From positions 10,668 to 74,667 of the forward strand of contig JAGMCL010000133.1 of the NCBI GenBank assembly GCA_023129165.1: a DNA stretch of 64,000 nt, read 5' to 3'. The stretch comes from a candidate division WOR-3 bacterium (GTDB taxonomy: Bacteria; Hydrothermota; UBA3073). The notes under the pieces were generated by a model. It searched no databases, was not told the DNA's origin, and saw only the letters and a list, made by a program, of their open reading frames with translations. This document shows positions 6,854 through 62,529 of the stretch, piece by piece (the first letter of the stretch is position 1; each line of letters opens with the position of its first letter). A program made the position numbers and the translations under genes.

Positions 6854-6900
6854 TAACCAGCATGGGAATTCATTGCGACTTGCCTGCCTACTGGCAGGCA

Positions 6901-6984
6901 GGCGACAGGTAGATACAATTGCTTTCCAATATCATTTAACCTAATCAACCAATTAACTATTCAACTAATCAACTCTTATCTCAT
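6901..6984 (+). repeat. 85-bp dispersed intergenic module (copies at 46437-46521 and, partial, 20628-20682)
   Basis: ggcgacaggtagatacaattgctttccaatatcatttaacctaatcaaccaattaactattcaactaatcaactcttatctcatt is near-identical at the three loci. Confidence 0.8.
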
Positions 6985-7013
6985 TCAACATTAAACATTA
7001 AACATTTAACATT

Positions 7014-10000: not shown

Positions 10001-10145
10001 TGTTGGTGAATGTAATCCCATAAAGAGATTCAAGCGGAACATCTCTTAGGTATAGCGAGAGAAACCTCTTCGCCAGCTCGTATGTCTTACCCGAACCTGC
10101 AGATGATTTCAGAGCTATATTAAACATAGAGTTTTTTGAGTTCAT
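7014..10145 (-). CDS. addA: UvrD/PcrA-type helicase fused to PD-(D/E)XK nuclease (AddA-like subunit)
   Basis: Walker A SSAGSGKTYEL, helicase motifs (DEFQDTS, VGDPNQAVFRWRGG, LKVNHRS, IHKAKGLEFPVV, YVALTRA) and a C-terminal nuclease (IIDYKTG). Sits immediately downstream of the AddB-like gene. Confidence 0.8.
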   Translation of the reverse strand: MNSKNSMFNIALKSSAGSGKTYELAKRFLSLYLRDVPLESLYGITFTNKATLEMKERIINYLNVLVNDNPIKPDEIEIQKIFRDRQKFIKEKRKNLFDNLTSLNIDTFHSLFASFLSTLPFEAGILPGYDIINETEENIIIDEVLDGFFEKALKMEDYRKAIFDLVRNDERRIKESILSIFKNVRSNIRLIRDNIDEIEVIKREIKEKEAQFRRVIDEFMIFMNENAECAYTAKGKMDKYMDNFIQKLQLFINEDSWKEVGELWIKGNPLSKTYFKKFVDRLRDKEKRFYMIVDKLRMSLNLLCVTLSDWELFVHIRPILEIEKMLQAEKLSRNLITFDDIERFAEKALMGGTDYLYFKIGATIDHLMIDEFQDTSIRQWEVLKPLVDEITSYGAGEKTLFYVGDPNQAVFRWRGGEAKLFDFVKKEYEGKIVEETLKVNHRSKSAIVEFVNRLFKRNDIYEKNNKGGWISFESVGDYSINEGREESRRRTVEIIKGLIEEGYKYDDIAILVRENKFGIAMTDLLDSEGIPCISESKANLFSREDTKTIINLLKFLECPEDDFSLSCVLLSPSFGLKENTLRRIKDKGKGKKSLYLSLVDEHPDWDVSKKLNKLLSIVGFSTPYEIVYKICKELEFTISGSIAALLQAALLYTHDGFNPLSSFIDWVELIGESIAVQDIEGEGIRILTIHKAKGLEFPVVIIPDTVWGLKEEDRLLLYYYEEGSIEPDKVYWARMGSLFPEIKEASIKRVIEDEKKVLYVALTRAVNGLYILGFDWQNRKSIFTWFDFIKGNVECPYYVGKVEEGREEMANGKWQKAKEKGEEGREEMANGKWQKAKVMGEGGRKEMANGKWQKANGKGVRSIKEERELYSPTERGVEIVTPERQEKIEFGNIVHDTLSRLEWLDGRDINEVISSLLEYAKSIYVRKEEDERLIEEKVREIIYNTLTFPDFQFAFNKGDKDVRLKVEVPVYYEKGKRDVSIKIDRLLIEPSKITIIDYKTGEEKDEDIKQLKEYREGMNLIFPERDIRAYLFYLDKGIVRQVG
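7575..7745. repeat. 3 x 57-bp tandem repeat inside the addA-like CDS (encodes EEGREEMANGKWQKAK x3)
   Basis: ttgccttttgccatttaccatttgccatttcctctcttccctcttct is repeated three times in frame. The word content is the same as intergenic modules at 21480-21570 and 38915-38975. Confidence 0.85.
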
Positions 10146-10285: not shown

Positions 10286-10313
10286 ATCGCCCCGCCTTTG
10301 GCGGGGCTCCTAC
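10286..10313 (-). repeat. REP-like hairpin (CCCCGCC stem class)
   Basis: atcgCCCCGCCtttGGCGGGGctcctac, between the addB-like stop and the addA-like start. Confidence 0.8.
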
Positions 10314-10351
10314 ATTAAACATTTAACATTCAACATTTAACATTGCATATT

Positions 10352-15340: not shown

Positions 15341-15405
15341 CCTCCTGGCATAATATTCATTATACCTGATTACTCAGATATTAACTACACAACACCTTTA
15401 GTGTG
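15341..15405 (-). promoter_or_regulatory. portable 65-bp leader/promoter-like element, copy 1 (also 43418-43480 and 57334-57397)
   Basis: Minus strand reads ...tagttaatatctgagtaatcaGGTATAATgaatATTATGCCaggagg. A hairpin containing TATAAT abuts the SD of hicB. Confidence 0.6.
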
Positions 15406-20559: not shown

Positions 20560-20619
20560 TTCGCCCCGCCAAAGGCGGGGCTCCTACCAATTATCGTCCG
20601 TCAAACGACGGATTCCTAC
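20560..20619 (-). repeat. two tandem REP-like hairpins (CCCCGCC and CCGTC stem classes)
   Basis: ttcgCCCCGCCaaaGGCGGGGctcctac (20560-20587) and atcgTCCGTCaaacGACGGAttcctac (20593-20619). Confidence 0.8.
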
Positions 20620-21363: not shown

Positions 21364-21573
21364 TTAAAATATCAACCACAGATTACACAGATAATCACAG
21401 ATAAATCAAAATTCAAAATCATTTCACCTTCAACATTCAACAATCAATTATTCAACTAATCAACTAATCAACATTCCTTTTAACTTTTGCCTTTTGACTT
21501 TTTACTTTTGCCTTTTTACTTTTGCCTTTTGACATTTCCCTTTCCCTCTTTCACCGTTTCCCCGTTTCTCTCT

Positions 21574-21662
21574 TCGCAACGAGGACGTTGCTCCTACCAC
21601 ATTCAACATCTAACATTTCACATTCAACCTACTTATCGCCCCGCCTTTGGCGGGGCTCCTAC
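21574..21662 (-). repeat. two REP-like hairpins separated by AACAT word array
   Basis: tcGCAACGaggaCGTTGCtcctac (21574-21597) and atcgCCCCGCCtttGGCGGGGctcctac (21635-21662). Confidence 0.8.
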
Positions 21663-21747
21663 CACATTCAACATCCAACATTTAACATTCCACATTCAAC
21701 ATTTCATTAGTCAATCTTCAATCTAAAATCTAAAATCTAAAATTACA

Positions 21748-28312: not shown

Positions 28313-28322
28313 TTTGTTTTTT

Positions 28323-28498
28323 CATACCCACTGCTGAAGCAGTGGGCTGATTAAAACCTGACATTTCATACCCACCGCTGAAGCAGTGGGCTAATTAAAA
28401 CCTGACATTTCATACCCACCGCTGAAGCAGTGGGCTAATTAAAACCTGACATTTCATACCCACCGCTGAAGCAGTGGGCTAATTAAAAACCAATATAC
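28323..28498 (-). repeat. 4 x 44-bp tandem array, each unit carrying the REP hairpin
   Basis: catacccacCgctgaagcagtgggctaattaaaacctgacattt with unit starts at 28323, 28367, 28411 and 28455. The hairpin pairs best on the minus strand (G-T wobble). Confidence 0.9.
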
Positions 28499-35989: not shown

Positions 35990-36269
35990 CTCTTCCTCCT
36001 TTTTGCAGAGTGAACACACATTTTACTTATTTAAAAAAAATTAAATCACAACCATCCCATAAAATATATTTATATCACCCCCTATGGTCTTAAATTATAT
36101 GATAATTACGAAATTTGAAATTAGTCATTTTTCCTTTATCTTTTTTCCTGTTGTCTGCCTGCCCTGCTTGTCCTGTAGCGTAGTGTACAGGATGAAATGC
36201 GAGCTTGTGAGCTATTTCATCAGGGGCTTGCCCTGTGAAATGCATAGCATATTTCATCAGGGTCATTCA

Positions 36270-36899
36270 TTAATGCGCCCTCACAATATCCTTAATCCTC
36301 ATAAGTCTTGAAAGCGCTGAACGTTCCATCTCAGAAAGCTTCATAACTATATATCGAAGTGTCTCTTCAAGATTTGGTATAAGGATATATTCAAGGGCAT
36401 TCACCCTTCTACGGGTTTTTTCAATCTCCAATGCAACAAGTTCAAGAGTTTTCTCTTTTGCTGCAAGTTCAAGAAGCTCCCCTATTATCTCGTCAAGACT
36501 CATCAGGGCTGCATCCAGCTCTGGTGATGTCCCGTAATATCCATAACAGATTATCTCACCACTAACAGATTGCGTAAGAACTGGAACCTTAACATTCATC
36601 AGATTTTTCTGCTCCAGTCTTACCTCAACATGCTTCGTAGGAATAAAAAGCGCCTCTTTCAGTAAGTCTGGTTCCATGCTGGCTCTTGCAAGAAGAAATT
36701 TTTTTGTAACACGAGTAAGTTCCCTTTCAATCTTCTCTCTCAGCACTTCAAGCTCTCTGGTCATAGCAAGAAGCCTCTCCATAAGTTCGTCCTGCTTATC
36801 CTTAAGGAGTTTGTGTCCCCTTTTTGCAATCTCTGTGCGCTTACGGAGCCTTAAAAGCTCCATTCTCGTTGCATTTACATTAAGCCTCATATTAATCAC
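36270..36899 (-). CDS. atpD: V/A-type ATP synthase subunit D
   Basis: MRLNVNATRMELLRLRKR start and coiled-coil body typical of V-type subunit D. Confidence 0.85.
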   Translation of the reverse strand: MINMRLNVNATRMELLRLRKRTEIAKRGHKLLKDKQDELMERLLAMTRELEVLREKIERELTRVTKKFLLARASMEPDLLKEALFIPTKHVEVRLEQKNLMNVKVPVLTQSVSGEIICYGYYGTSPELDAALMSLDEIIGELLELAAKEKTLELVALEIEKTRRRVNALEYILIPNLEETLRYIVMKLSEMERSALSRLMRIKDIVRAH

Positions 36900-36980
36900 T
36901 GTCTATTGGACGCAGATCTTCGCAGATTATCTTGATTATTTTATTTTACAAATAATTATTCTTTTCGTGGTTATTCGCGT

Positions 36981-38354
36981 TTATGATTTTTTGTAATACT
37001 TGTCAAGGTGCTCATCCCTTATCCTTTTCAATTCCGCCCTGGGAAACATCGATAGAAGTTCCCAACCAAGATTTAGTGTGGTTTCTATATCCCTATCTTC
37101 ATAATCATCCTGGGATATATATCTTTTTTCAAACTCGTCTGAGAAGTTCAAATATAGTATGTCCATATCAGATAGTGCCGCCTCACCAAGTACGATTGAG
37201 AGTTCCTCTGCCTCCTTACCTCTTGAATAACAAGCAATCAATTGATTAAAGAGGTCTGCATGATCCTCTCTTGTTTTACCCTCTCCAATTCCTTTATCCT
37301 TAAGTCTTGAAAGTGATGGTAATACATTTACAGGCGGAAATACCTTCTTTCTAAAAAGCCCTCTTCCAAGTAGAATCTGCCCTTCTGTAATATATCCAGT
37401 TAAGTCAGGAATCGGATGAGTTTTATCATCCTCAGGCATTGTAAGAATCGGAATGAGTGTTATTGAACCCTTTTTATTCTTCAACCTTCCAGCCCTCTCG
37501 TATACCGAGGCAAGATCAGTATACATATATCCGGGGTAACCCCTTCTCCCTGGTATCTCTTTTCTCGCTGCAGATATTTCCCTTAGTGCCTCACAATAGT
37601 TGGTCATATCTGTAAGTATTACAAGTGTATGCATCTCGAGTTCAAAGGCAAGATACTCTGCTGCTGTCAAAGCAACTCTTGGTGTTGCTATCCTCTCAAT
37701 AACTGGGTCATTCGCAAGATTTATAAACATGGATGCCCTTGATATAGCTCCTGTCTCTCTGAAATCGTTTATAAAAAACTCAGCTTCTTCATAAGTAATG
37801 CCCATGGCAGCAAAAACCACTGAAAATTTCTCCTCTTTTCCAAGTACTTTTGCCTGACGTGCTATCTGAGCAGCTATTGAATTATGAGGAAGACCTGAAC
37901 CAGAGAATATAGGGAGCTTCTGTCCTCTTACAAGTGTATTTAATCCGTCTATTGCAGATATACCTGTCTGGATAAACTCATCCGGATAATTCCTGGCATA
38001 TGGATTAAGAGGAGAACCATTTATATCGGCTTTCACCTCAGGAAGAATCTCGGGAGCATTGTCGATGGGTTCACCCATACCATTGAATATCCTGCCTGTT
38101 ATCTCAGGTGATAGAGAAATTTCAATACCCCTTCCCCTGAATCTCACCTTTGTCTCGGGAATATCAATACCTCTTGTTCCCTCAAACACCTGTACCAATG
38201 CTTTATCTTTGTCAACCTCAAGAACCTGTCCCTTTCTAACCTCGCCATTCTTCAATTCTATCTCGCACAGCTCGGCATATTTTATCCCACTGACCCCTTC
38301 TACAAGCATGAGAGGACCTGATATCTTTATAACGGTTCTATATTCCTCTGCCAT
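36981..38354 (-). CDS. atpB: V/A-type ATP synthase subunit B
   Basis: Full-length similarity pattern to V-type B subunits ([40 protein letters not shown]). Confidence 0.92.
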
Positions 38355-38772
38355 AAACTCCCCTATTTTTTATTAATCGTTATTTGTTATTAGGTAATTA
38401 AGTAATTCTTATTAGCCACTAAGCCACTAAGACACCAAGTGTTCAAAAAATTATATATATTCTAAAACAAACAAGTTATTAAGTATACCCACTTTACTCA
38501 GTTTATTGTGTTTATTGAGTTTACACAGTTTACTCTGTTTTTGAGTTTGTTTTAAAATCCGAAATTCGCAATCCGACGGCTTCAAGTCATTAAGTAATTA
38601 AGTTATTAGGTCATTAAAGAAATAGTCAATTGTCAATTTAAAATCGTCAATCTTCAATAGGCATTCAACATTTCTTCTAATGCCACCAAGTCCGTTAGCT
38701 AACGGAAAGGCACAAAGTTTTTTATTTACTGATTACTGATAACCGATGACTTTCGCTCTTCACGCTTCCCTT

Positions 38773-38797
38773 ATCGCGACTGTGAAGTCCCTCCTAC
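38773..38797 (-). repeat. REP-like hairpin (GCGAC stem class, degenerate)
   Basis: atcGCGACtgtgaaGTCcCtcctac, inside the atpA-atpB spacer. Confidence 0.65.
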
Positions 38798-39016
38798 CTT
38801 TAATTTACTATTTTTGATTGTCGATTTACAATTGCTTTCCAATTTGTGTTCCTCAATAGTAAATATTCAATTATTACTATTCCTCCCTCTTCCCCTGTAC
38901 TAACCAACTTACCAACTAACCAACTATTCCCTCTTCTCTCTTCCCTGTTTCACCGGTTCCCCGTTTCTCGCCCTACGCCCTACGCTTTACACACTACGCT
39001 TTTCGCTCTTCATTCT

Positions 39017-39121
39017 TCGCAACGAGGACGTTGCTCCTACCATCACCTGCTTAAAAAGTATCTGTATACATCTGCCTTAATCTGCTTCCAAATTCTATCG
39101 CGACTGGGAAGTCCCTCCTAC
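39017..39121 (-). repeat. two REP-like hairpins in the atpA-atpB spacer
   Basis: tcGCAACGaggaCGTTGCtcctac (39017-39040) and atcGCGACtgggaaGTCcCtcctac (39097-39121). Confidence 0.75.
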
Positions 39122-39180
39122 CACATTAAACATTAAACATTAAACATTTAACATTTCGTTCACATTCAACCATTCAACTA

Positions 39181-40917
39181 TCAAAGCTTATCAATATCCT
39201 TCCTGAGTTCCTCTATCTTTTTTATCTTCTCCTCTTCTATATATTTCATCCTCGAAATCCGCTCCCAGATAGGGGACTTTATTATTTCATCCATTGTCTT
39301 TCCCGTCTTTAACAGAGATTGCACCTTCTTATAGAGATAAAGTATGGTTGAGAGCATCTCCTTTTGTTTCTTAATCGATGTATATGTATCAACCTCATGG
39401 AATGCATTTTGATGAAGAAAATCCTCTCTGATTGACCGTGCAATCTCAAGCAGCAATCTTTCTTCATTAGAAAGCGATTCAATTCCAACGAGCCTCACAA
39501 TCTCCTGTAACTCTGACTCTCTCTCTAAAATTATCATTGCATCCTTTATCTCTGAAGGAAATTCTTCTCCAACGTTTGCATCCAACCATTCCCTTAAAGT
39601 GTCTGAATAAAGCGAATAACTTGAAAGCCAATCTATCGCAGGGAAATGTCTTGCATTTGCGAGTCTATCCTGCAAATCCCAGAAGACCTTAACAACCCTG
39701 AGCGTTGACTGTACTACAGGGTCAGCAAGGTCTCCACCAGGTGGTGATACCGAACCAATCACAGTAAGAAATCCCTCCCTTTCAGGAGCTCCCTGGCATT
39801 TTACCCTTCCTGCCCTTTCATAAAACTCTGCAATTCGTGTGCCAAGATAAGCAGGATAACCCTCTTCACCTGGCATCTCTTCAAGTCTTCCCGATATCTC
39901 TCTCATTGCTTCTGCCCATCTTGATGTTGAATCTGCCTGTAGTGTCACACGGTAGCCCATATCCCTGAAATACTCTGCTATGGTCATTCCTGTATAAACT
40001 GATGCCTCCCTTGCAGCCACAGGCATATTGGATGTATTTGCCACAAGTATAGTCCGCTTCATAAGTGGTTCGTCGGACTTTGGGTCCTTTAGCTCAGGAA
40101 ATTCTAATAATACATCTGTCATCTCATTACCCCTCTCACCGCATCCCACAAACAGGATAATGTCTGCATCTGCCCACTTGGAAATCTGGTGCTGAATTAC
40201 AGTTTTTCCGGATCCAAAGGGACCCGGTACACATGCAGTTCCACCTTCAGCAACAGGAAAGAAGGTATCTATCACCCTTTGACCCGTATACATAGGTATC
40301 TCCGGTGGCAACTTCTTTTTGTAAGGCCTTGCCATTCTCACCGGCCACCTCTGCATAAGTGTTATCTCTCTCTTACCATTTTTAGTATCGACCATACAAA
40401 CAACATCAGTGACATTGAATTTACCCTTCTTTATATCAATAATCTTTCCTGTGATACCAGGTGGTATCATAATTCTATGCTTGACCAGAATAGTCTCCTC
40501 AACCTCACCAATTATATCCCCACCAGCAACCTCATTACCTTTCTCTTTTGTTGGTACAAACTCCCATTTATGTTCCCTGTCAAGCCCGGGAATTGCGATT
40601 CCCCTTGTGATATAATTACCTGCCTGTTTCATAATATCATCAAGGGGTCTCTGGACTCCATCATATATTGAACTTATAAGACCAGGTCCAAGTTCAACAG
40701 ATAGAGGTTCATGTGTGGGGTATACTGATTCCCCGGGTCCAATTCCCCCAGTTTCCTCATAAACTTGAATTGATGCAAGGTCTCCCTTCAATTCTATTAT
40801 CTCTCCTATTAGATTTGCCTTACTTACCCTTACTACATCGTACATTTTGGAACCACTCATACCCTTTGCTACAACAAGAGGACCTGAAACCTTTATTATC
40901 TCACCAAAATCTTTCAT
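39181..40917 (-). CDS. atpA: V/A-type ATP synthase catalytic subunit A
   Basis: Walker A GPFGSGKTV, the non-homologous region and C-terminal helices. Start at MKDFGEII has a 4-nt ATGA overlap with the atpF stop. Confidence 0.92.
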   Translation of the reverse strand: MKDFGEIIKVSGPLVVAKGMSGSKMYDVVRVSKANLIGEIIELKGDLASIQVYEETGGIGPGESVYPTHEPLSVELGPGLISSIYDGVQRPLDDIMKQAGNYITRGIAIPGLDREHKWEFVPTKEKGNEVAGGDIIGEVEETILVKHRIMIPPGITGKIIDIKKGKFNVTDVVCMVDTKNGKREITLMQRWPVRMARPYKKKLPPEIPMYTGQRVIDTFFPVAEGGTACVPGPFGSGKTVIQHQISKWADADIILFVGCGERGNEMTDVLLEFPELKDPKSDEPLMKRTILVANTSNMPVAAREASVYTGMTIAEYFRDMGYRVTLQADSTSRWAEAMREISGRLEEMPGEEGYPAYLGTRIAEFYERAGRVKCQGAPEREGFLTVIGSVSPPGGDLADPVVQSTLRVVKVFWDLQDRLANARHFPAIDWLSSYSLYSDTLREWLDANVGEEFPSEIKDAMIILERESELQEIVRLVGIESLSNEERLLLEIARSIREDFLHQNAFHEVDTYTSIKKQKEMLSTILYLYKKVQSLLKTGKTMDEIIKSPIWERISRMKYIEEEKIKKIEELRKDIDKL

Positions 40918-41246
40918 AGAGACCCCTTTCTCCCCCCCATCAAATCCACGCCACAAGCCTTTTTAACAAGATTTCTCATACGTTCACGAGTAAATCCACT
41001 TGCTCCAAGTGGTCCGGGTATTGATAGTAAACAGGGAAGTGGTTTAAAAGAAACCTCTTTAAAAATTGATTCTGCACCACTCAGAAACTTATCCGATACG
41101 AATATAACACCCACATTCTCCTCTATAAGCTCCTGTACTGTTTTGATAAACTCATGCTCAGAAGTAACCGGGTAAATCTCGACACCTACTGCGCTGAAAG
41201 GCATTATAACGTCATATTCTCCAACTGCTGCAAGTTTAGTCGCCAT
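40914..41246 (-). CDS. atpF: V/A-type ATP synthase subunit F
   Basis: ~110 aa, KLAAVGEYDVIMPFSAVGVEIYPV pattern, positioned between C and A. Confidence 0.8.
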   Translation of the reverse strand: MATKLAAVGEYDVIMPFSAVGVEIYPVTSEHEFIKTVQELIEENVGVIFVSDKFLSGAESIFKEVSFKPLPCLLSIPGPLGASGFTRERMRNLVKKACGVDLMGGRKGSL

Positions 41247-41429
41247 GATAGATTAGTAATTATGTCATTAAGTAATTAAGTTATTCTGGTTTATTTGGTT
41301 TGTTTAGTTTGTTTAGTTAAAAGACAAGTAAAAAGGAAAAAGTAAATTGTCAATAGTCAATTTAAAATCGTCAATCTTCAATTACCATTCAACATACAAC
41401 ATTTAACATTTAACATTAGACATTTAACA

Positions 41430-42446
41430 TTAGACATACGTTTCCGGCAACCTTTCTTTTAACAACTCCTCTTCTATACCATAAATGCTGGAAGTAAAAA
41501 GCATGCGTAAGATTTTAAATTCATTCTCCTTTGCATAGAAATATGTAACCACAGGCTCAACACCAAATGCAAGATATTTTGAATGCCTTGAAAAATCAAT
41601 AAAAACATCATCACAAAACTTCTCAAGTTTGAGAAAAGAACCCTTCTCAAATACTGGTGGTGCTCCCTCACTTAAGATATGAACATAAGGAGTATATTTG
41701 AAATACTCCCACACACTCTCTACTGTCTCATCGTAGATTGCCAACAATTCTTTACTGGGTATAAAACCACCATCAATCAAACCAAAAGAAAATCTTCTCT
41801 TATCTACTTTTGCCCACTTGGTTCTTATAAGTGTCTTTATATTGACAAGGTCAATGTCAATCTTATGAAGTGCGGAGATAAATAAATTACCTGACTCAAG
41901 AACCCTATCACTGCGATACTCGAAAAAACTCTTATCAAGTATAATATCCAACATTCCTGGGTCTTTGTCTATATAGTATGATTCTACTGCCTTTTCAATC
42001 CCTTCTTCATACATTGAGGGTAATCTAAAATATAATTCGTTTCTGAATATATCAGTAATCTCTGAAAGTGATATGTTGCCGTATGGTGAGAGAGATTTGG
42101 GTTCAGTCTCGGTGATTTTTGCCTTTAGACACATCTTAATGTTGTAACTATCATATTGAGATCTTAAAAACTGCATTACAGGCGGGTCTAAAATCAATTT
42201 TTCCATAAGCAAGAATAACACCTCTCTCCCCCTACTTATTATATCTTCATATTCACGAGGTAAATTAGGAAGGAGTTGTGCATAATCCGTATCTCCAAGA
42301 GACTTTAACAGTTCTTCTCCGGACATTCCCATGAGACGAGAAATTTTCTGAGAAGTAAGCAGTCCTGTTTCAAGTGACCTTATTCTTGCAACTGCATATG
42401 CATATCTCTCATCTTCACTCTCTATGTAGGGAAAACTTATAACCAT
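41430..42446 (-). CDS. atpC: V/A-type ATP synthase subunit C (d-type)
   Basis: ~338 aa helical protein with the YAYAVARIRSLE start typical of the V-type C/d subunit. Operon context agrees. Confidence 0.8.
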   Translation of the reverse strand: MVISFPYIESEDERYAYAVARIRSLETGLLTSQKISRLMGMSGEELLKSLGDTDYAQLLPNLPREYEDIISRGREVLFLLMEKLILDPPVMQFLRSQYDSYNIKMCLKAKITETEPKSLSPYGNISLSEITDIFRNELYFRLPSMYEEGIEKAVESYYIDKDPGMLDIILDKSFFEYRSDRVLESGNLFISALHKIDIDLVNIKTLIRTKWAKVDKRRFSFGLIDGGFIPSKELLAIYDETVESVWEYFKYTPYVHILSEGAPPVFEKGSFLKLEKFCDDVFIDFSRHSKYLAFGVEPVVTYFYAKENEFKILRMLFTSSIYGIEEELLKERLPETYV

Positions 42447-42569
42447 AACAAAAGATAGTCATAGGGTCCTGATGAAATAGTAAACATTCCACAGGATAAA
42501 TCTTAGAGTCATAGAGTCATTGTGTCCTTTACTCCTACCACCTATTACCTGTCACCTGTCAGCTACTTT

Positions 42570-42797
42570 TCGCAACGAGGACGTTGCTCCTACCATCACC
42601 TATCACTTTCATCATTCAACATTAAACATTAAATATCTAACATGTATCTGTATCATTTAACCAATTAACTACTCAACTAATCAACTCTTTTATCGTCCGT
42701 CAAACGACGGACTCCTACCCTCCCTTTTTGTAGGAGGGGTTTCCTAACCCCGATTAACCATAATGGGAATTTATCGCGACTGGGAAGTCGCTCCTAC
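42570..42797. repeat. BIME-like cluster of four REP-like units with four different stems
   Basis: tcGCAACGaggaCGTTGCtcctac (42570-42593), atcgTCCGTCaaacGACGGActcctac (42692-42718), forward gtaggaGGGGTTtcctAACCCCgat (42730-42754), atcGCGACtgggaaGTCGCtcctac (42773-42797). Confidence 0.8.
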
Positions 42798-42833
42798 ATT
42801 AAACATTTAACATTCATCATCCCACATTCAACA

Positions 42834-43412
42834 TTAAACATTACTCTTCCCAAACAATATCCTTACCAATTCAGTTTCTAACAATTCCCTTTTCTCCTTA
42901 ATTATGGTTCCAACTGATGCATCGATATCTTTATTTTTACCCTTTAGTATGAATCCTCTCCTTATTGGTATCTTCTCATTTGATAGTTTGAGTTTCCAAC
43001 CCTTATCCTTGTTTATCTTCTGGACGAATTTCTCATTTATTATCTTCTCATCTTTACATACAAAAACCTCTTCTTCCCCTGATTCAACAGAGTTTTCAAA
43101 AAGAGATTCTATAAGCTTCGAGTACTTATCACCCTTACAAATATCATCCACCACCTTGTTAAAAAGACTATTCATTAGTTCGTGCTTATATCCGAGTAAG
43201 GCATTTCTCTGCTCAATCTCTTTTAAACCTATTAACCTTTCAAATTCCCTTTCACCTTTTTCTTTTGCCCTTCTTTCTATTTTCTCTGTAACCTTTTTGA
43301 GTTCACGCTTTGTTGCACTATCAATCTCCTTCTTCTTCTTTTCTGCCTCTTTTATAATCTTATTACTTTCCTTTTTCGCATCTTCCAGTATTTTTTGTGA
43401 TACCTTATCCAT
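42834..43412 (-). CDS. atpE: V/A-type ATP synthase subunit E
   Basis: Lys/Glu-rich N-terminal helix (KILEDAKKESNKIIKEAEKKKKEI) plus a globular C-terminus. Start at MDKVSQK follows an AGGAG RBS. Confidence 0.8.
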   Translation of the reverse strand: MDKVSQKILEDAKKESNKIIKEAEKKKKEIDSATKRELKKVTEKIERRAKEKGEREFERLIGLKEIEQRNALLGYKHELMNSLFNKVVDDICKGDKYSKLIESLFENSVESGEEEVFVCKDEKIINEKFVQKINKDKGWKLKLSNEKIPIRRGFILKGKNKDIDASVGTIIKEKRELLETELVRILFGKSNV

Positions 43413-43417
43413 TGATT

Positions 43418-43480
43418 CTCCTGGTATAATATTCATTATACCTGATTACTCAGATATTTAACTACCTTACACCTTTATAG
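43418..43480 (-). promoter_or_regulatory. portable 65-bp leader/promoter-like element, copy 2
   Basis: Minus strand reads ...tagttaaatatctgagtaatcaGGTATAATgaatATTATACCaggagaatcaATG (atpE). Confidence 0.6.
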
Positions 43481-43559
43481 TCCAATCTAAAATCATAAAT
43501 CTTGGTGTCTTAGTGTCTTTCCGTTAGCTAACGGACTTAGTGGCATACAATTCTTATAA

Positions 43560-44045
43560 CTAAATTTTTATCCCAATATATATGATAAGGAATGAAATTA
43601 CCAGACCAAGAACTGCATATGTTTCAACCATAACCCCAAATATCACAGCCCTCATTGCTGCATCAGGCTGCTTTGCAGCCATCTCAACACCAGCAGCACA
43701 TACCTTTCCCTGATGAATCCCTGATGTGAAACAGGCTATGGCACATGGAAGTGCAGCAAATAGTATTTGTAAACCCTGTATAGTAGTGGGTATAAGAGGT
43801 GTTCCACCAAGAAGATTTAATTTGAGAATTACTATAATTGCAATAATAAACCCATAAAAACCCTGTGTGGATGGAAGAACAGCCAATAAAAATATCTTAC
43901 CAAATTTATCAGGGTCCTCACTTAATACACCACTTGCACTTCTTCCAACTATACCAAGCCCTATTGCAGAGCCAACTCCGCCCATAAAGGATGCAATAGC
44001 CCCACCTGCTATTGCAAACATTAACCCAAGCTGTTCAAGTCCCAT
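43560..44045 (-). CDS. atpK: V/A-type ATP synthase proteolipid subunit K (4-TM, duplicated c)
   Basis: Four TM helices with an ion-binding Glu in VMVETYAV. Start at MGLEQLG. Confidence 0.85.
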   Translation of the reverse strand: MGLEQLGLMFAIAGGAIASFMGGVGSAIGLGIVGRSASGVLSEDPDKFGKIFLLAVLPSTQGFYGFIIAIIVILKLNLLGGTPLIPTTIQGLQILFAALPCAIACFTSGIHQGKVCAAGVEMAAKQPDAAMRAVIFGVMVETYAVLGLVISFLIIYIGIKI

Positions 44046-44352
44046 AATCCCCCCTGTAAATAAAAAATTTTTTGGTAAACAATTTATTTTACACACATCT
44101 GGAAAAAAGATTAGAAGATATTATATATATTTGCTTCTTTTATTTTACGAGTCTAATCCCTACCTATCGACAGGCAGGTCCCTGTTAAAAGTGTCATAGG
44201 GTCGACACAGTTTATTGAGTTTAACCGGTTTATTGTGTTTACTTTTTTCCTGTCTTTAATTCGTAAATAGTCAATAGTAAATCGTTTACCCTATGAAATG
44301 AGTATCTATTTCATCGGGGTCAATTACAAGTCCCTGTCAAGGAGTCCCATAC

Positions 44353-45354
44353 CTACCAGATATCCTTCCCGATAAGAGTTACTGATAATCTGACAAATAG
44401 CTCTTCAATCTCCTCCCAGCTTCTCTTACCCGCCTCAACACCGATTGATAACTCACCCAGTCTATCCGGGTAAAGATAACTTGTTCCAAAGCATCCACCT
44501 ATCTCGTCTATATCTCTATAATACCATGAATGCAAGAATACACCACCTCTTAACGTTTTTGTACCTATCTTTTTACTCAAACTTAAACCTATATTTGTTC
44601 CAGTTGAAAAAATATTATCAACACTCTCCCACATTTCCATATCAACATTTGTTGCAATCATCCAGTCCTGACTCACTCTATAGAATAACGATATTGAGTA
44701 CTTTGGAGGAAGCTCTACATCGCTAAAGAAATGAGAATAACTCAGTGATAAATCCACCTTTTTATAACTTAATTTAAACTGGGGCCTCAATCCATATCCA
44801 TATGTTGAACTATTAATAATATAAGTTGTTTTATCATAATTGCTCGATGTAAAGTTTGTTTCCCATATTTCCTCTGTCCTTCCAAAAGTTGCAAGTCCAC
44901 CTATGCCAATACTAAAGGAATGAAATGACTTATATAAAGATATGGAAGTAATATTAATGCTTCCTGTTCCAGTAATTATCCTATCGTATCTAATATCTCC
45001 CAACTGATTATCTCTCGATTCGATATAAAAATTTTTTGAAAGTATGTTAGAGAGAGTAATGGCTACGCCAAATCTATTAGGAAGTGGAAAAAAGTAGTTT
45101 ATATCATATAAAGAGAAAGACTGATCATTTCGTACATTATCCCCATCCCTTATTTGTATGAAATCAGCAAGAAAGGTTACACTAAATGTGTTTACCTCTG
45201 GCGTCTCAAATATTCTCGCACCCGCCATTCCCCTTTCAACTGCATTACCAAAGTCTACATATTCACCATAACCCAGGGATGAAAACACGGATGCATATGA
45301 AACAATAGGAACAAACAATAAGATTAATAATAAAAATCTTAATAAAGTTCTCAT
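44353..45354 (-). CDS. hypothetical outer-membrane beta-barrel-like protein
   Basis: Signal peptide, alternating beta-strand pattern and C-terminal aromatic residue. No family recognised. Confidence 0.4.
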   Translation of the reverse strand: MRTLLRFLLLILLFVPIVSYASVFSSLGYGEYVDFGNAVERGMAGARIFETPEVNTFSVTFLADFIQIRDGDNVRNDQSFSLYDINYFFPLPNRFGVAITLSNILSKNFYIESRDNQLGDIRYDRIITGTGSINITSISLYKSFHSFSIGIGGLATFGRTEEIWETNFTSSNYDKTTYIINSSTYGYGLRPQFKLSYKKVDLSLSYSHFFSDVELPPKYSISLFYRVSQDWMIATNVDMEMWESVDNIFSTGTNIGLSLSKKIGTKTLRGGVFLHSWYYRDIDEIGGCFGTSYLYPDRLGELSIGVEAGKRSWEEIEELFVRLSVTLIGKDIW

Positions 45355-46358
45355 CTCATATCTCCTGTCTTATTCGTATAAACAACTTCAAGCATAATAT
45401 CTCTACTGAAGGAAGCTCTAAAATGTGTTCCTTCTTTACCTTCGATTATGAGAAACCTATCCTCATCGGTTATCCATTCATCCACAAACCTTGTTATCTC
45501 TATTTTTACAATAGAATCTTCCTCTATTTTATACCCTGCAGATTGGCTACCTTTGTATCTTATGGAGATTTTAGGGTTTGGTCCAAACGTGCTAATTACA
45601 GTAATATACAAGTCGGCATTATTTACAGTCGCAACATTATCAAAATCAATAATCGAATCCGCTATAAAGATACTATCCTTATATTCATAGAATCCAGAGG
45701 CGATAAAAATATCCGTAGTATCTAAATCAAAAATGGTATCTACAAAGACATCCCTAATAGGTTCTTCTATTTCCAGTAAGGGACCTCTATATAATTTAAT
45801 AATAGGTGTGAAATGTGAATCCTTTGAATAAAATGCACATCCCTCACCTTCTCCACACAAAGCTACATTAATTAAACTGTCATCGAGAACCTTATTAGCA
45901 GAAATACGGAGCAGTGTATCACCTGTCAAAGTATCTTCTATCCAGGAATATGATTCAGAAATAACGTCTGAAAGATGTGAGCTAACATACTCCCAATTAA
46001 TTATACTATCTTCCTCAAACTCACCATCAAACCTTTTCAGATATAATTCTCCATCCACTCTACTATTCACCACAAACTCCAAAATCACACTGTCATACTG
46101 TACCTTGGTTTGCGGTCTTTCAAACGAGAGAAGACTTATCACATTATCACCTGTATAAATATAATCTGATGAGCCTGTTATAGAGTTTTCCTGAAAATAA
46201 GTGTGTGTAAAGCTAACAAGACTATCACAAACTACATCTCCGACTATATCATCTATAAAATCACCGCCCACAGGGTCATCCCTGTCACATGATACCAATA
46301 TAAGAACAAACCCAATAATAAGAACCGAAATTTTAATGTCTAACATCACATTTTTCAT
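45351..46358 (-). CDS. hypothetical lipoprotein
   Basis: Lipobox LILVSC after an N-terminal hydrophobic segment. Has a 4-nt overlap with the downstream OMP-like gene. Confidence 0.45.
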   Translation of the reverse strand: MKNVMLDIKISVLIIGFVLILVSCDRDDPVGGDFIDDIVGDVVCDSLVSFTHTYFQENSITGSSDYIYTGDNVISLLSFERPQTKVQYDSVILEFVVNSRVDGELYLKRFDGEFEEDSIINWEYVSSHLSDVISESYSWIEDTLTGDTLLRISANKVLDDSLINVALCGEGEGCAFYSKDSHFTPIIKLYRGPLLEIEEPIRDVFVDTIFDLDTTDIFIASGFYEYKDSIFIADSIIDFDNVATVNNADLYITVISTFGPNPKISIRYKGSQSAGYKIEEDSIVKIEITRFVDEWITDEDRFLIIEGKEGTHFRASFSRDIMLEVVYTNKTGDMR

Positions 46359-46436
46359 TTTTTATTTTAACTCTCCTTTTTTAAAATTTACTATTTTCGA
46401 TTGTCGATTCCTGTCTACCCCCGCCAAGGCGGGGCA

Positions 46437-46521
46437 GGCGACAGGTAGATACGATTGCATTCCAATATCATTTAACCTAATCAACCAATTAACTTTTCAA
46501 CTAATCAACTCTTATCTCATT
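46437..46521 (+). repeat. 85-bp dispersed module (same as 6901-6984)
   Basis: Near-identical sequence: ggcgacaggtagatacgattgcattccaatatcatttaacc...tcttatctcatt. Confidence 0.8.
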
Positions 46522-46545
46522 TAACATTTTACATTCAACATAATT

Positions 46546-46772
46546 ATCGCGACTGGGAAGTCGCTCCTACCATCTAACACCTGAAACCTAACACCTATCA
46601 CCTTCATCATTCAACATTAAACATTTCTTCTAATGCCACGAAGACACAAAGTTTTTTTATTTACTGATTACTGATAACCGATAATTTTCGCTCTTCACTC
46701 TTCCCTTATCGCGACTGGGAAGTCGCTCCTACCATCTAACACCTGAAACCTAACACCTATCACCTTCATCAT
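46546..46772 (-). repeat. two identical ~65-bp units (REP hairpin + CTAACACCTGAAACC words) around a ~95-bp module shared with 38662-38797
   Basis: atcgcgactgggaagtcgctcctaccatctaacacctgaaacctaacacctatcaccttcatcat occurs at 46546-46610 and 46708-46772. Confidence 0.8.
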
Positions 46773-46828
46773 CCCACATTTTTCCTTTTTTCACTTTTTA
46801 CTTTTACCTTTTTACTTTTTACTTTCAT

Positions 46829-47038
46829 TTAGGGTACCGGGTCATAACCACCTCTACTAAAAGGATTACACCTAAGAACCCTCCATATCCCAAGTCCCAG
46901 CCCCTTGAATACTCCATATCGTATTATTGCCTCCTTGGTATATTCAGAGCAGGTAGGGTAGAACCTACAGCTTGGTGGGAACAAAGGAGAGATTATCTTT
47001 TTATATATGTTCAGTACAAGGATTAACACATATTTCAT
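46829..47038 (-). CDS. yidD: membrane protein insertion efficiency factor YidD
   Basis: [27 protein letters not shown] ... [14 protein letters not shown] signature. Confidence 0.9.
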
Positions 47039-47172
47039 ACTACCAACCTTTTTCTTCCTTTTGCTCTTCTTCTCTTTAATATTTCTCTACCATCTTTCGT
47101 TGAACTTCTCTTCCTGAACCCATGTTTGTGATGACGCTTAATTCTCGATGGTTGATATGTCCTCTTCGGCAT
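47035..47172 (-). CDS. rpmH: 50S ribosomal protein L34
   Basis: 45-aa ORF not in the track: [53 protein letters not shown] present. Its stop overlaps the yidD ATG. Confidence 0.9.
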
Positions 47173-47432
47173 TATATACTCCTAGTTATTAGTTATAAGT
47201 TATTAGTTACTCGTTTTAGTTATAATAATTAAGCTATTCAGGTTTGTTTGGTTTGTCGAGTTTGTTTAGTTTATATGCTCGGGACTCACTATTTATCCCG
47301 TTGAATGTTTAAACTATTCCATCGGGACTGGATACTCGCTACTTCAATATACGGTTTATTGAGTTCGTTAGATTCATATAATTAACGTTGATAATTTTGA
47401 TATTTAATATTTGATTTTTAATTTACTTATCC

Positions 47433-47506
47433 TACCCCCAGTCCGACTCGAACGGACAACCTACTGGTTCGTAGCCAGTTGCTCTATCCAGTTGAGCTAT
47501 GGGGGC
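47433..47506 (-). tRNA. tRNA-Arg (anticodon ACG)
   Basis: Hand-folded cloverleaf: acceptor GCCCCCA/TGGGGGT, D arm GCTC..GAGC, anticodon arm ACTGG-CTACGAA-CCAGT, T arm GTCCG-TTCGAGT-CGGAC. No encoded CCA. Confidence 0.85.
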
Positions 47507-47555
47507 GAGAATTACTAATAGTCAATAAATTAACAGTTTACTCAGTTCTTTGAGT

Positions 47556-47954
47556 TTACTCAGTTTGTTGAGTTTTCTTGGATGACTTTATTTTAGATGT
47601 TAAGTAGCTTATCAGTCCTGAGTCAAGTTTAGAAACTTTCTCCGATTGATTGTATATACTTTCAAAGGTCTCTTTTGATATATAATTTTGATCTAAAGCT
47701 ACATAATAAATACTTTGTATTTCAGCAGCAGAAGATTTGGATATAAAAAGAAATTGAATAAATTCTTTATTCGAGTGTCGAGAAAAACCCTCAGCTATGT
47801 TTGACATAGTAGAAACAGCTGCTGCGGTTGATTGGTCTCTAAGTCTATAATCCCTTTTAAAATTTTCATTCCTGTTTATAGAATTATAAACCATCCGAAC
47901 GAGAATCCTTGCCTCCTTCCAACATTCAAGCTCTTCAAATCTTTTAACTGTCAT
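47556..47954 (-). CDS. four-helix-bundle protein (23S rRNA intervening-sequence protein family)
   Basis: ELECWKEARILV ... STMSNIAEGFSR ... FLFISKSSAAEIQS pattern of the TIGR02436/PF05635 family. The last codons are encoded by the flanking word repeat. Confidence 0.8.
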   Translation of the reverse strand: MTVKRFEELECWKEARILVRMVYNSINRNENFKRDYRLRDQSTAAAVSTMSNIAEGFSRHSNKEFIQFLFISKSSAAEIQSIYYVALDQNYISKETFESIYNQSEKVSKLDSGLISYLTSKIKSSKKTQQTE

Positions 47955-47961
47955 TTATTCC

Positions 47962-48069
47962 CCAACAAACTCAATAAACCGGGTAAACCCAATAAACCCA
48001 ACAAACTCAATAAACCGGGTAAACCCAACAAACTCAATAAACTCAACAAACTTAATAAACCCAATAAAC
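47962..48069. repeat. 12 phase-perfect 9-bp repeats (YYRRYAAAC; minus strand TGRGTTTRT)
   Basis: ccaacaaac tcaataaac cgggtaaac ccaataaac ... fills the gap between the tRNA-Lys 3' end and the four-helix-bundle gene start. Confidence 0.9.
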
Positions 48070-48077
48070 TCAAATTA

Positions 48078-48151
48078 TACGCCGCCTGGGAATCGAACCC
48101 AGAACCCACGGATTAAGAGTCCGTTGCTCTCCCTAGTTGAGCTAGCGGCGC
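48078..48151 (-). tRNA. tRNA-Lys (anticodon CTT)
   Basis: Hand-folded cloverleaf: acceptor GCGCCGC/GCGGCGT, anticodon arm ACGGA-CTCTTAA-TCCGT, T arm CTGGG-TTCGATT-CCCAG. No encoded CCA. Confidence 0.85.
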
Positions 48152-48210
48152 ATTAGAAATACTTATTTAAGCAATTTTACTCGATGATTAGTGTATATTT
48201 CGACGCTGTT

Positions 48211-48239
48211 ATTATAACACGAACTCCCAAAAATGTCAA
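48211..48239 (-). promoter_or_regulatory. sigma70-type promoter (TTGACA - 17 bp - TGtTATAAT)
   Basis: Reverse complement reads cTTGACAtttttgggagttcgtgtTATAAT, ~55 nt upstream of tRNA-Lys. Confidence 0.7.
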
Positions 48240-48280
48240 GAAAAAAAATCAACGGATTAAGCGGATTTATCGGATTATAT

Positions 48281-48313
48281 AAAAAAGGGTCGCAGCTGTA
48301 AATGCTACGACCC
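48281..48313 (-). terminator. rho-independent terminator after cspA
   Basis: Minus strand reads GGGTCGtagcatttacagctgCGACCC followed by TTTTTTATAT. Confidence 0.65.
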
Positions 48314-48336
48314 CTGGGTAGACTGTGTCAGGACTT

Positions 48337-48540
48337 TTAAGACTTGTTTACATTGGTTGCTTTTTGTCCCTTAGCATCATCCACTACCTCAAATGTTACT
48401 TCATCACCCTCGAGCAGGTTCTTAAAACCCTCACCCTGGATTTCACTGTAGTGGACGAAGACATCATCACCACCATCTTCTCGTTCAATGAATCCATAAC
48501 CCTTGGACTCATTAAACCACTTTACTTTACCTCGTACCAT
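48337..48540 (-). CDS. cspA: cold-shock protein (CspA family)
   Basis: [15 protein letters not shown] (RNP1) and VFVHYS (RNP2) motifs. Confidence 0.92.
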
Positions 48541-48582: not shown

Positions 48583-48611
48583 ATTATAACACATTTTTTA
48601 CACTTTGTCAA
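48583..48611 (-). promoter_or_regulatory. sigma70-type promoter (TTGACA - 17 bp - TGtTATAAT)
   Basis: Reverse complement reads cTTGACAaagtgtaaaaaatgtgtTATAAT, with a T-tract upstream of the -35. Lies ~40 nt from the cspA ATG. Confidence 0.75.
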
Positions 48612-48651
48612 GAAAAAAAATCAGCCTGTCCCCTTTTTTATTTCTATTCCT

Positions 48652-49869: not shown

Positions 49870-49898
49870 ATTATAACACGAACCCATATAAAAGTCAA
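49870..49898 (-). promoter_or_regulatory. sigma70-type promoter (TTGACT - 17 bp - TGtTATAAT)
   Basis: Reverse complement reads cTTGACTtttatatgggttcgtgtTATAAT. Confidence 0.7.
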
Positions 49899-49928
49899 GA
49901 AAATATTAGGAGGAAAACAAAAGGTATG

Positions 49929-54524: not shown

Positions 54525-54553
54525 ATTATAACACGTCCAGCCCTAAATGTCAA
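54525..54553 (-). promoter_or_regulatory. sigma70-type promoter (TTGACA - 17 bp - TGtTATAAT)
   Basis: Reverse complement reads cTTGACAtttagggctggacgtgtTATAAT, ~30 nt upstream of the SBP start. Confidence 0.75.
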
Positions 54554-54569
54554 GAATAAATTTAAGATT

Positions 54570-57333: not shown

Positions 57334-57397
57334 CTCCTTAGTATAATATTCATTATATATGCTTACTCAGATATTTAACTACATCACACTTTTTAGT
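57334..57397 (-). promoter_or_regulatory. portable 65-bp leader/promoter-like element, copy 3
   Basis: Minus strand reads ...tagttaaatatctgagtaagcatatATAATgaatATTATactaaggagggtagaATG (Cache lipoprotein). Confidence 0.55.
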
Positions 57398-57522
57398 GGG
57401 TTTGTGTCTTAGGGTCGACACTGTTTATTGAGTTTACCCAGTTTGTTGTGTTTGTTGGGTTGACTTTTTACTTGTCCTTAAATCGTAAATCTAAAATCCA
57501 AAATCTTAAATTCCAAGTCCCT

Positions 57523-57574: not shown

Positions 57575-57603
57575 ATTATAACACAACCTGAAGGAAAAAT
57601 CAA
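57575..57603 (-). promoter_or_regulatory. sigma70-type promoter (TTGATT - 17 bp - TGtTATAAT)
   Basis: Reverse complement reads cTTGATTtttccttcaggttgtgtTATAAT, in tandem with the promoter at 57523-57551. Confidence 0.6.
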
Positions 57604-57632
57604 GAAAAAAATCAGCTGATTTAGCGGATTAT

Positions 57633-60848: not shown

Positions 60849-60877
60849 ATTATACTACAAAATTAAGTAAAAGTCAA
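60849..60877 (-). promoter_or_regulatory. sigma70-type promoter (TTGACT - 17 bp - TATAAT)
   Basis: Reverse complement reads cTTGACTtttacttaattttgtagTATAAT, ~220 nt upstream of the 58874-60628 gene. Confidence 0.6.
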
Positions 60878-61270
60878 GAAAAAAAATCATCGGTTTTCGA
60901 GTACATGACCCTATAGGGATGTATGTAGAGCAAGTATTAGCTTTGTAAAAATCCAACTAAATATTCCTTCTCACTCAAATTAAAGAGCAAATTCCGTGTC
61001 AGAATTTGCTAATCCTGAAATAGCAGTAAATAACTAATATAGGGGGCAATAAGACCGTGCAATTTTTGCAAAATCTGTGCAATAATTGCAGTTAATCATT
61101 GTTTTGCTTTTCCTTCGTTCCTCTGTACAATACCTGGAACCAATATGGAGGGAAGGCTCCTTTCAGGTCTTGGTACTCTTGTTGCGGATTGAAGGGATTA
61201 AACAGATGTTTTCAGCGGATTAAGCGCCTGCCTGCCGGTAGGCAGGGATTAAGCGGATTTATCGGATTAT

Positions 61271-62428: not shown

Positions 62429-62457
62429 ATTATAACATAATCCTCAGAAAAAATCAA
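62429..62457 (-). promoter_or_regulatory. sigma70-type promoter (TTGATT - 17 bp - TGtTATAAT)
   Basis: Reverse complement reads cTTGATTttttctgaggattatgtTATAAT. Confidence 0.6.
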
Positions 62458-62529
62458 GTAAAAACTTACATCAGATGGGAAGATAAAGATATGGTTATCA
62501 GTGGGTTACCCAGGATGTTATTAGAGATG

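Follow-up and report, generated by a model that had tools for sequence, protein, structure and literature searches.

Hairpin repeats with constant GTAG-tagged flanks and interchangeable stems in a candidate division WOR-3 genome are probable RAYT-associated REP elements

Short hairpin repeats were analyzed in a 64,000-nucleotide window of DNA from a candidate division WOR-3 bacterium (assembly GCA_023129165.1, contig JAGMCL010000133.1, positions 10,668 to 74,667). An earlier note on this DNA had listed about two dozen hairpin units, among them those at 42570–42797, and had assigned them to repetitive extragenic palindromes (REPs) of the kind in which GTAG precedes a palindrome and which are associated with REP-associated tyrosine transposases (RAYTs). 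We found that the units are very probably GTAG-tagged REPs of the GTAG-1/-2, group 3 RAYT format, and that they were most likely spread by a RAYT. A hairpin was present at every listed coordinate, giving 21 units and, in addition, three GTAGGGG-headed hairpins (Table 1).

All 21 units are built on the plan GTAGGA / G-stem-loop-stem-C / GA(T/A/C), with stems of 6–8 bp and loops of 3–4 nt. They fall into five stem classes, in agreement with the earlier count of at least five unrelated stems: class A (GCGACT tccy AGTCGC; six copies, two with an uncompensated C-to-G change), class B (GCAACG tcct CGTTGC; six copies, tail mostly GAA), class C (GCCCCGCC aaa/ttt GGCGGGGC; seven copies, 8-bp stem), class D (GTCCGTC gttt GACGGAC; two copies), and class E (GGGGTT tcct AACCCC; two copies). 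The loop TCCY is common to classes A, B, and E, and the class C loop is present in both orientations (AAA or TTT). Stems were perfect in 15 of 20 cases, and in five of 20 contained one mismatch or bulge. The flanks had been described as invariant. This holds for the core, GTAGGA...GA, with a stem closed by a G-C pair and an unpaired GA spacer between GTAG and the stem in every unit, but not for the positions around it. The leading G of the 8-mer GGTAGGAG is missing in about one-third of the units, the head is GTAG in 19 of 21 (the exceptions being TTAGGAG at 3511 and GTAGGAA at 20619), and three tails occur: GAT (14 units), GAA (one class C unit and five of the six units of class B), and GAC (another class C unit).

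The abundance of the units in the window is far above chance. The 8-mer GGTAGGAG occurs 15 times, compared to 1.28 expected occurrences and a maximum of four in 100 shuffles, while the flank-only pattern GTAGGAG-N12-30-CGAT occurs 13 times, compared to 0.27 expected. Out of 35 GTAGGA hexamers, 15 are followed directly by a perfect stem of at least 6 bp that ends exactly at GA, and a further five by a hairpin of this kind bearing a single mismatch or bulge; at random positions, the corresponding rate is 0.2%. Within the window, enrichment over chance, which the earlier note had put forward as a genome-wide check, was thus confirmed. A scan of the window with Rfam revealed no RNA family at the gathering score except two tRNAs, and a full-text literature search for the 8-mers returned unrelated primer sequences only. 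The three GTAGGGG-headed hairpins constitute a second GTAG family, whose stem abuts GTAG directly.

Stem variation was studied in Joint Genome Institute (JGI) metagenomes, using the pattern GGTAGGAGSRRYBTCCYVRYYSCGA, in which flanks and loop are fixed and stems are only loosely constrained. At least 120 loci were matched. Among the matches listed, contig GC content ranged from 36 to 73%, and 128 of 141 matches were fully complementary, compared to a chance rate of 1/48. Over all retrieved loci, there were 57 distinct flank-and-loop-anchored 24-mers and 28 different fully complementary stems. In these 24-mers, 97.1% of stem cells were paired (66.4% in shuffles), five out of five variable pairs covaried, and the covariation score of 0.835 (0.217 in shuffles) was reached by none of 500 shuffles. 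Exact class B and class C units were also found in unrelated contigs.

The claim that whole stems are swapped with full compensation was thus upheld; the view of the earlier note that this is unusual was not, since such swaps are already described (Di Nocera 2013; Corneloup 2021). Most GTAG families comprise several subfamilies, whose stems differ but are complementary in each (Di Nocera 2013). Marinomonas REPMb, which is associated with a group 3 RAYT, combines a 5-bp stem with a 4-nt loop, and its GTAG is followed by two bases. Exchange of the entire REPMb stem for its complement changes cleavage only moderately, while a mismatch strongly reduces it; position T13 of the loop is crucial, and GTAG directs which site, CT or CA, is cleaved (Corneloup 2021). 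This tolerance of stem swaps explains the combination of constant flanks with swapped stems, which would be the expected, and already known, signature of this REP type.

A direct link to transposases is provided by five independent RAYT genes in other contigs, at loci L033, L109 (the same element as L145), L146, L147, and L148, each directly flanked by REPs of the same plan. All five genes have GTAGGA...GA(W) units at a distance of no more than ~150 nt. L033 and L109 were identified by tblastn with E. coli RayT, and the other three loci through homologs of the L109 protein; scores with the NCBIfam model NF047646 were 143 bits for the L033 protein and 110 bits for the L109 protein, at a cut-off of 80. 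In L033 (60% GC), same-plan units are located on either side of the RAYT gene. L109 (41% GC) contains the exact class B unit of the window, and REPs are also inserted in frame inside its RAYT open reading frame (ORF). L146 (37% GC), whose source is a sibling sample in the study that produced the window, has stems GCAACT, GCAATT, and GCAGGT. In L147 (49% GC), there are some ten units, and their stems are GCAAGC, GCGAGC, and GCAACC. In L148 (52% GC), inverted pairs of two different stems are found on both sides of the gene, like class E in the window. The assignment to RAYT-associated GTAG-plus-palindrome REPs is therefore backed both by the flanks, which match those of Nunvar 2010, and by the same-plan REPs around the five genes.

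In-frame REP insertions were observed in RAYT genes at L109 7027–7770, L145 985–1662, and L146 248–775, where, for example, GRSKLPLAKYT is present two or three times and VAPT motifs occur. The invaded ORFs are still open, and their HUH and tyrosine motifs are intact.

RAYT-associated REPs with the same flanks are Pent1 (TGTAGGAGCGGATTCATCCGCGAT) and Pent2 (GTAGGAGCCAGCTTGCTGGCGAA) of P. entomophila, Pput4 (TGTAGGAGCGGCCTTGcGTCGCGAA) of P. putida W619, Pflu1 (GTGGGAGGGGGCTTGCCCCCGAT) of P. fluorescens SBW25, and Xaxo (GTAGGAGCGCACCtGGGCGCGAC) of Xanthomonas (Nunvar 2010). The GTAG-1/-2 definition includes two extra "GW" bases and a 3-bp tail (Di Nocera 2013). The window units and the Pseudomonas/Xanthomonas REPs (GTAG-1, group 3 RAYTs) have an identical plan and near-identical flanks, GT(A/G)GGA-G-stem-loop-stem-C-GA(T/A/C); in both cases, several stem classes with common flanks occur per genome or genus, the elements are extragenic and located downstream of ORFs, and RAYT genes are flanked by units. 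The differences concern the host, which is not a member of Gammaproteobacteria, the loops (TCCY, AAA/TTT, or GTTT in the window; TT/TTC-type in Pseudomonas and Xanthomonas), the clusters, which in the window are not single-class head-to-head or tail-to-tail dimers, and the RAYT gene, which was not found in the ~85 kb of the window genome. REPtron Mb of Marinomonas sp. MWYL1 is similar in having a short perfect stem, a loop of 4 nt, and a two-base gap that separates GTAG from the stem, but its stem and loop sequences are different, and REPMb is known from biochemistry, whereas the window units are known from sequence alone. The SMAG repeats (GTAG-6 to -9) found in Stenotrophomonas maltophilia are also GTAG-tagged short palindromes with subfamilies defined by stem and loop, and occur as singles, dimers, and clusters. 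Their stem, however, abuts GTAG, without a GA spacer or 3-bp tail, which makes them closer to the 4469–4611 family than to the main one.

Based on published work on other RAYTs, the following chain of events is the most likely one. A unit in single-stranded DNA would fold as a hairpin. The RAYT, a member of the HUH-Y1 family, would recognize GTAG in its unpaired state, the loop, and whether the stem is perfectly paired, while the sequence of the stem would not be read; it would then cut next to the hairpin, at a dinucleotide, and copy or move the unit. Because only pairing would be read, complementary stem variants would stay active, each spreading as its own lineage, and the stem classes would be the outcome. 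As a secondary effect, inserted units would be transcribed in sense within 3′ untranslated regions and operon spacers, and may act there as RNA hairpins on transcript stability.

Comparison with relatives revealed that units occupy different sites in closely related genomes. The genes of CSMAG_2245, a conspecific metagenome-assembled genome (MAG), are 96–97% identical to those of the window at the DNA level, but the intergenic repeat content is not alignable, and classes A–E are also present at unrelated loci of this MAG, on seven other contigs. The spacer between the E-like and AC39 subunit genes of the V/A-type ATPase contains five units or heads in the window (A, E, D, B, and an orphan head) and one class C unit in CSMAG_2245 (L018). 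The corresponding spacer of L118, a syntenic JGI contig, contains one A-like unit (GCGACC tcct GGTCGC) 31 nt past the stop codon of the E-like gene, that of L021 contains one GTAGGGG-type unit, and that of L020 heptamers only. In the window, the genes for ATPase subunits A and B are separated by a repeat-filled spacer of 826 nt (38355–39180) that harbors three units; the spacer is ~100 nt long in L020 and L118, while in L021 the genes overlap. Identical units at non-homologous sites, and different occupants at homologous sites, imply that units were copied and replaced rather than evolved in place. The comparison of the two conspecific genomes indicates that unit turnover is fast. An AATGT(T/G)N array 3′ of the ATPase E-like gene is retained in L020, without any REP there.

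Several observations weigh against spread by a RAYT in this organism. The earlier note had called for a search for Y1/RAYT genes. Using tblastn with E. coli RayT, a 67-sequence RAYT profile on six-frame translations, and Pfam with gene calls, we found none in the window plus ~20 kb of flanking DNA (~85 kb) or in ~70 kb of the conspecific MAG, the five genes described above being located in other contigs; the 67-sequence profile gave no match in WOR-3 loci either. The L146 RAYT is probably from another organism: its 37% GC contig was considered as a part of the window's genome and rejected, since none of its REP stems occurs in the window. L109/L145 was considered as WOR-3 and also rejected, as tblastx found no shared genes, and blastn found only short shared repeats. 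When the two conspecific MAGs were compared, no GTAGGAG unit yielded a clean pair of an empty and a filled site, because the intergenic regions are too rearranged to align.

The arrangement of the units also counts here, for it is unlike that of classic bacterial interspersed mosaic elements (BIMEs) or of REPINs, the inverted REP pairs. Clusters are mostly head-to-tail runs of mixed classes in gene-sense orientation (23:3). Only three inverted pairs were found (6793–6853, 42692–42754, and L024 4619–4679), each consisting of two unlike stems, class E (+) with class B or D (−), separated by a conserved 11-nt linker. The window resembles E. coli BIMEs (REP y/z1/z2) and Pseudomonas REPINs in having REP mosaics with short linkers and inverted pairs of two REP types, but neither a regular alternation of orientation nor an inverted pair of the same REP folding as a long hairpin was found among the units. 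Since the stems of inverted partners are unrelated, a long REPIN hairpin cannot form, and E. coli REPs themselves are long, bulged palindromes, unlike the window units. The BIME-like arrangement suggested previously thus holds only in part.

Part of these observations would be accounted for if the units were fossil REPs, i.e., if a RAYT was once present and is now lost, and the units have since been reshuffled by recombination, slippage, and gene conversion, together with the 7–9-nt arrays that surround them. We consider this possible but unlikely. No RAYT was found in ~155 kb of the species' DNA, units are contained in larger duplicated mosaics (families D2, D11, D14, and D20, and a 162-nt duplication at 46544–46792), and disappearance of REPtrons with REPs staying behind is on record (Di Nocera 2013). 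However, the DNA searched is a small part of the genome, and RAYT loci tend to be found on short unbinned contigs (891 bp for L146, 2.5 kb for L145); such contigs assemble poorly (0.9–2.5 kb), so a RAYT could easily be missing from a MAG. Moreover, the classes occupying an intergenic region differ completely between conspecifics with 96–97% identical genes, which points to recent activity. We infer that a RAYT is present and acting in the window genome.

The location of the units relative to genes bears on a second alternative. Twenty of the 21 units are intergenic and grouped in eight of 47 intergenic regions, while the remaining unit is inside addB. In the window genome and its WOR-3 relatives, 26 units are in co-directional, four in convergent, and one in divergent intergenic regions, and a preference for co-directional and convergent regions is known for GTAG REPs (Di Nocera 2013). 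The orientation check proposed in the earlier note gave 23 sense and three antisense units in co-directional regions, all three antisense units belonging to class E and each having an inverted class B or D partner. Many units are located 20–80 nt after a stop codon. No sense-oriented unit is less than 120 nt from the next start codon, and the AGGAG of the flank, pointed out previously as a Shine-Dalgarno-like core, thus gives no indication of serving as a Shine-Dalgarno site. Two explanations of the sense-strand bias can be given: strand-specific insertion with co-oriented genes, or selection on transcripts. The GC skew of the window simply tracks the coding strand, so replication and transcription bias are not separable by skew.

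Selection on transcripts would prevail if the hairpins and their flanks were host elements kept for mRNA stability or processing that set ATPase subunit ratios, with spread by a transposase being secondary or absent. E. coli REPs protect upstream mRNA. The 23:3 bias, seen with loci retrieved in arbitrary orientation, the many units shortly past stop codons and in V/A-ATPase operon spacers, and the predicted local folding of the hairpins in the RNA of the 387-nt spacer that separates the E-like and AC39 genes are all consistent with such a role. On the other hand, orthologous spacers contain no unit (L020) or units of another class (L018, L021, and L118), and the A–B spacer varies from a gene overlap to 826 nt; this variability in content and length implies that a given site does not need a specific element. 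The same plan is found in contigs of 36–73% GC and next to RAYT genes, and strand-specific single-strand transposition with co-oriented genes also predicts an orientation bias. That the units are primarily host-selected RNA elements thus appears rather improbable.

An origin of the units as intrinsic terminators, formed on the spot at the ends of genes, is a very poor explanation. While GC-rich hairpins shortly past stop codons, notably those of class C with its 8-bp stem, could suggest termination, none of six terminator-like sites in 36000–48500 overlaps with a unit, T-runs do not follow any of the units (whose tails are A/G-rich, GATAAAAG or GAAGA), units are found between genes of one operon, and identical 25–28-nt units are present at unrelated loci and in other organisms. 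The units are thus very unlikely to be just 3′-end terminators, as the earlier note had allowed they might turn out to be, and in other contigs they are RAYT-linked.

The 7–9-nt arrays suggested, as a first guess, small dispersed repeats (SDR) of cyanobacteria, very small RNA-mediated mobile repeats inserted in heptamer arrays of the short tandemly repeated repetitive (STRR) type. Elhai et al. (2008) reportedly described SDR elements that are located within heptameric STRR arrays and have a common fold despite different sequences. By this description, the likeness consists in small hairpin repeats within tandem 7-nt arrays and in unusually long intergenic regions, but the gene content and genome matches place the host in WOR-3, not in cyanobacteria, and the GTAG tag and direct RAYT linkage fit REPs, so the guess was dropped and we regard it as scarcely credible.

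The arrays in which the units are embedded have periods of 7, 8, and 9 nt (AATGTTN, AGTTGATT, CTTTTNC, and AAACYCAAY) and occur together with the larger duplicated mosaics. They are intergenic and tightly packed, and directly abut REP units (Table 1). A 44-nt repeat, present in 3.8 copies at 98% identity, has the palindrome CCCAC(C/T)GCTGAAGCAGTGGG in each copy; it is located between two genes and its copies have no spacers, and is thus not CRISPR-like. A different, nested hairpin (CCTGTCGCCTGCCCCGCCTTGGCGGGGGTAGACAGG) at 46410–46445 (−) represents a clean 40-nt presence/absence difference from the conspecific MAG (L018), and related CCTGCC...GGCAGG GTAG RCAGG hairpins are found in L023, L109, and L031. 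An exact class C core with flanks (TAGGAGCCCCGCCtttGGCGGGGCGAC) is present in L007 and L013 (a MAG labeled uncultured Armatimonadia, which belongs to another phylum by its assignment), beside GTAGGGGCGGAG-type REPs.

The only unit within a gene is an antisense class C unit that is in frame in addB and encodes CRPAKGGAPT, residues 296–305, in a linker whose sequence is hypervariable when orthologs are compared. In several species, recBCD and uvr genes have been reported to contain REPs (Di Nocera 2013), and a unit in addB, a recBCD-type repair gene, agrees with this. In a 91%-identical AddB ortholog, P0024, the same linker contains DRDWEVAP, which is a translated class A unit. Other AddB orthologs have heptamer-derived peptides (KIKNQKSKI) in this linker, and the AddA/UvrD-like coding sequence of addA contains a CCATTTG-type heptamer array (57-nt period, 2.8 copies, 95% matches) that should encode a repetitive low-complexity insert.

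The window has a GC content of 36%, a coding density of ~80%, and a median intergenic length of ~215 nt, with nearly all genes on the minus strand. Its sequence is identical to a part of ENA scaffold ERZ23498683 (137 kb) and to contigs of MAG GCA_030628885.1. The assignment to WOR-3 is based on gene content (V/A-ATPase, type IX secretion system tails) and genome matches, and close relatives with the same repeats are labeled candidate division WOR-3 or Candidatus Stahlbacteria. The 42570–42797 segment is within the V/A-type ATPase gene cluster. A TTGAC-N17-TATAAT motif recurs on the minus strand; these motifs are probably housekeeping promoters of the window organism, and one of them matches all 12 consensus positions and has a TG extension. 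Two families of 50–53-nt repeats with 74–90% identity (GTATAATATTCATTATACCTGATTACTCAGATATTT... and GTGTCATAGGGTCGACACAGTTTATTGAGTTTA...), located at gene starts or upstream, may be common promoter or leader modules. A PF05635 gene (23S rRNA intervening-sequence protein, four-helix-bundle) is flanked by two tRNA genes and by long 9-mer arrays, and is kept at the same place in relatives L018 and L020.

Table 1. Hairpin units, tandem arrays, and other features of the window. Hairpins are written as head, stem, loop, stem, and tail; loops are in lowercase.
Feature	Position (strand)	Sequence	Context or remarks
Class A	3445–3469 (+)	GTAGGA GCGACT tcct AGTCGC GAT	Convergent region, 65 nt past stop of + gene 2848–3381
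Class B variant	3482–3508 (+)	GTAGGAGCACAACGTCCTCGTTGCGAT	2-nt bulge
Class C	3511–3538 (+)	GCCCCGCC aaa GGCGGGGC GAT	Degenerate head TTAGGA
Second-family hairpins (three)	4469–4611	GTAG GGGTTCGA ttta TCGAACCC at 4588–4611 (−)	Relatives in L021
Class C	6760–6787 (−)		One stem mismatch
Class B	6793–6817 (−)	GCAACG tcct CGTTGC GAA	Inverted partner of 6829–6853
Class E	6829–6853 (+)	GGGGTT tcct AACCCC GAT	Antisense to neighboring genes
Class C	10286–10313 (−)		40 nt past addB stop codon
Class C	12228–12255 (+)	Loop TTT, tail GAC	Within addB, antisense, in frame
Class C	20560–20587 (−)	Loop TTT, tail GAA	
Class D	20593–20619 (−)	TCCGTC gttt GACGGA CGAT	Head GTAGGAA
Class B	21573–21597 (−)		
Class C	21635–21662 (−)		
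Class A variant	38773–38797 (−)	GGGACT tcac AGTCGC	Uncompensated C-to-G; variant repeats at 39097–39121 and in conspecific MAG
Class B	39016–39040 (−)		In 826-nt spacer between ATPase A and B subunit genes
Class A variant	39097–39121 (−)	GGGACT tccc AGTCGC	
Orphan head	42532–42539 (−)	GGTAGGAG	No hairpin; inside GGTGACA-type heptamer run
Class B	42569–42593 (−)	GTAGGA GCAACG tcct CGTTGC GAA	Identical 25-mer flanks and invades RAYT gene in L109/L145
Class D	42692–42718 (−)	GTAGGA GTCCGTC gttt GACGGAC GAT	Inverted partner of 42730–42754
Class E	42730–42754 (+)	GTAGGA GGGGTT tcct AACCCC GAT	Antisense to genes
Class A	42773–42797 (−)	GTAGGA GCGACT tccc AGTCGC GAT	38 nt past stop of ATPase E-like gene
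Class A	46546–46570 (−)		Part of ~87-nt duplicated mosaic (family D20)
Class A	46708–46732 (−)		Second copy of ~87-nt mosaic; also in conspecific MAG
Period 7/8/9 arrays	3402–3440, 6677–7013, 10312–10344, 21429–21743, 38476–38926, 39123–39155, 41255–41439, 42796–42852, 46477–46825, 47183–47272, 47961–48073		
44-nt repeat	28320–28488		
addA	7014–10145 (−)		Heptamer array at 7576–7740
addB	10352–13141 (−)		
AC39/C subunit gene	41430–42446 (−)		Flanks 42570–42797
E/G-like subunit gene	42834–43436 (−)		Flanks 42570–42797
PF05635 gene	47556–47954 (−)		
TTGAC-N17-TATAAT motifs	4680–4713, 48211–48247, 48583–48619, 49870–49906, 54525–54561, 57575–57611, 60849–60885, 62429–62465 (−)		12/12 copy with TG extension: 48239–48211
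50–53-nt repeats	15348–15400, 43424–43476, 57341–57393; also 44191–44240, 57404–57453		

It is conceivable, though we give it little weight, that REPs held almost exclusively in sense orientation, together with the 7–9-nt arrays in greatly expanded spacers of an essential operon, serve as a modular RNA "punctuation" for the stability and processing of polycistronic mRNA, with variants supplied by one stem-tolerant RAYT clade and the element set being common across phyla. The 28 compensated stems constitute a natural data set that is in accord with the published view that RAYTs of this group read GTAG, loop, and pairing rather than the stem. The repeats also account for contig breaks of MAGs in intergenic regions, for spurious ORFs, and for odd protein inserts, such as those in AddB and in RAYT genes. 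No new mechanism is revealed; what is new is the host phylum. The REP-RAYT system of the GTAG-1/group 3 type, so far studied almost only in Gammaproteobacteria, is extended to WOR-3/Stahlbacteria and to many metagenomic taxa with GC contents of 36–73%.

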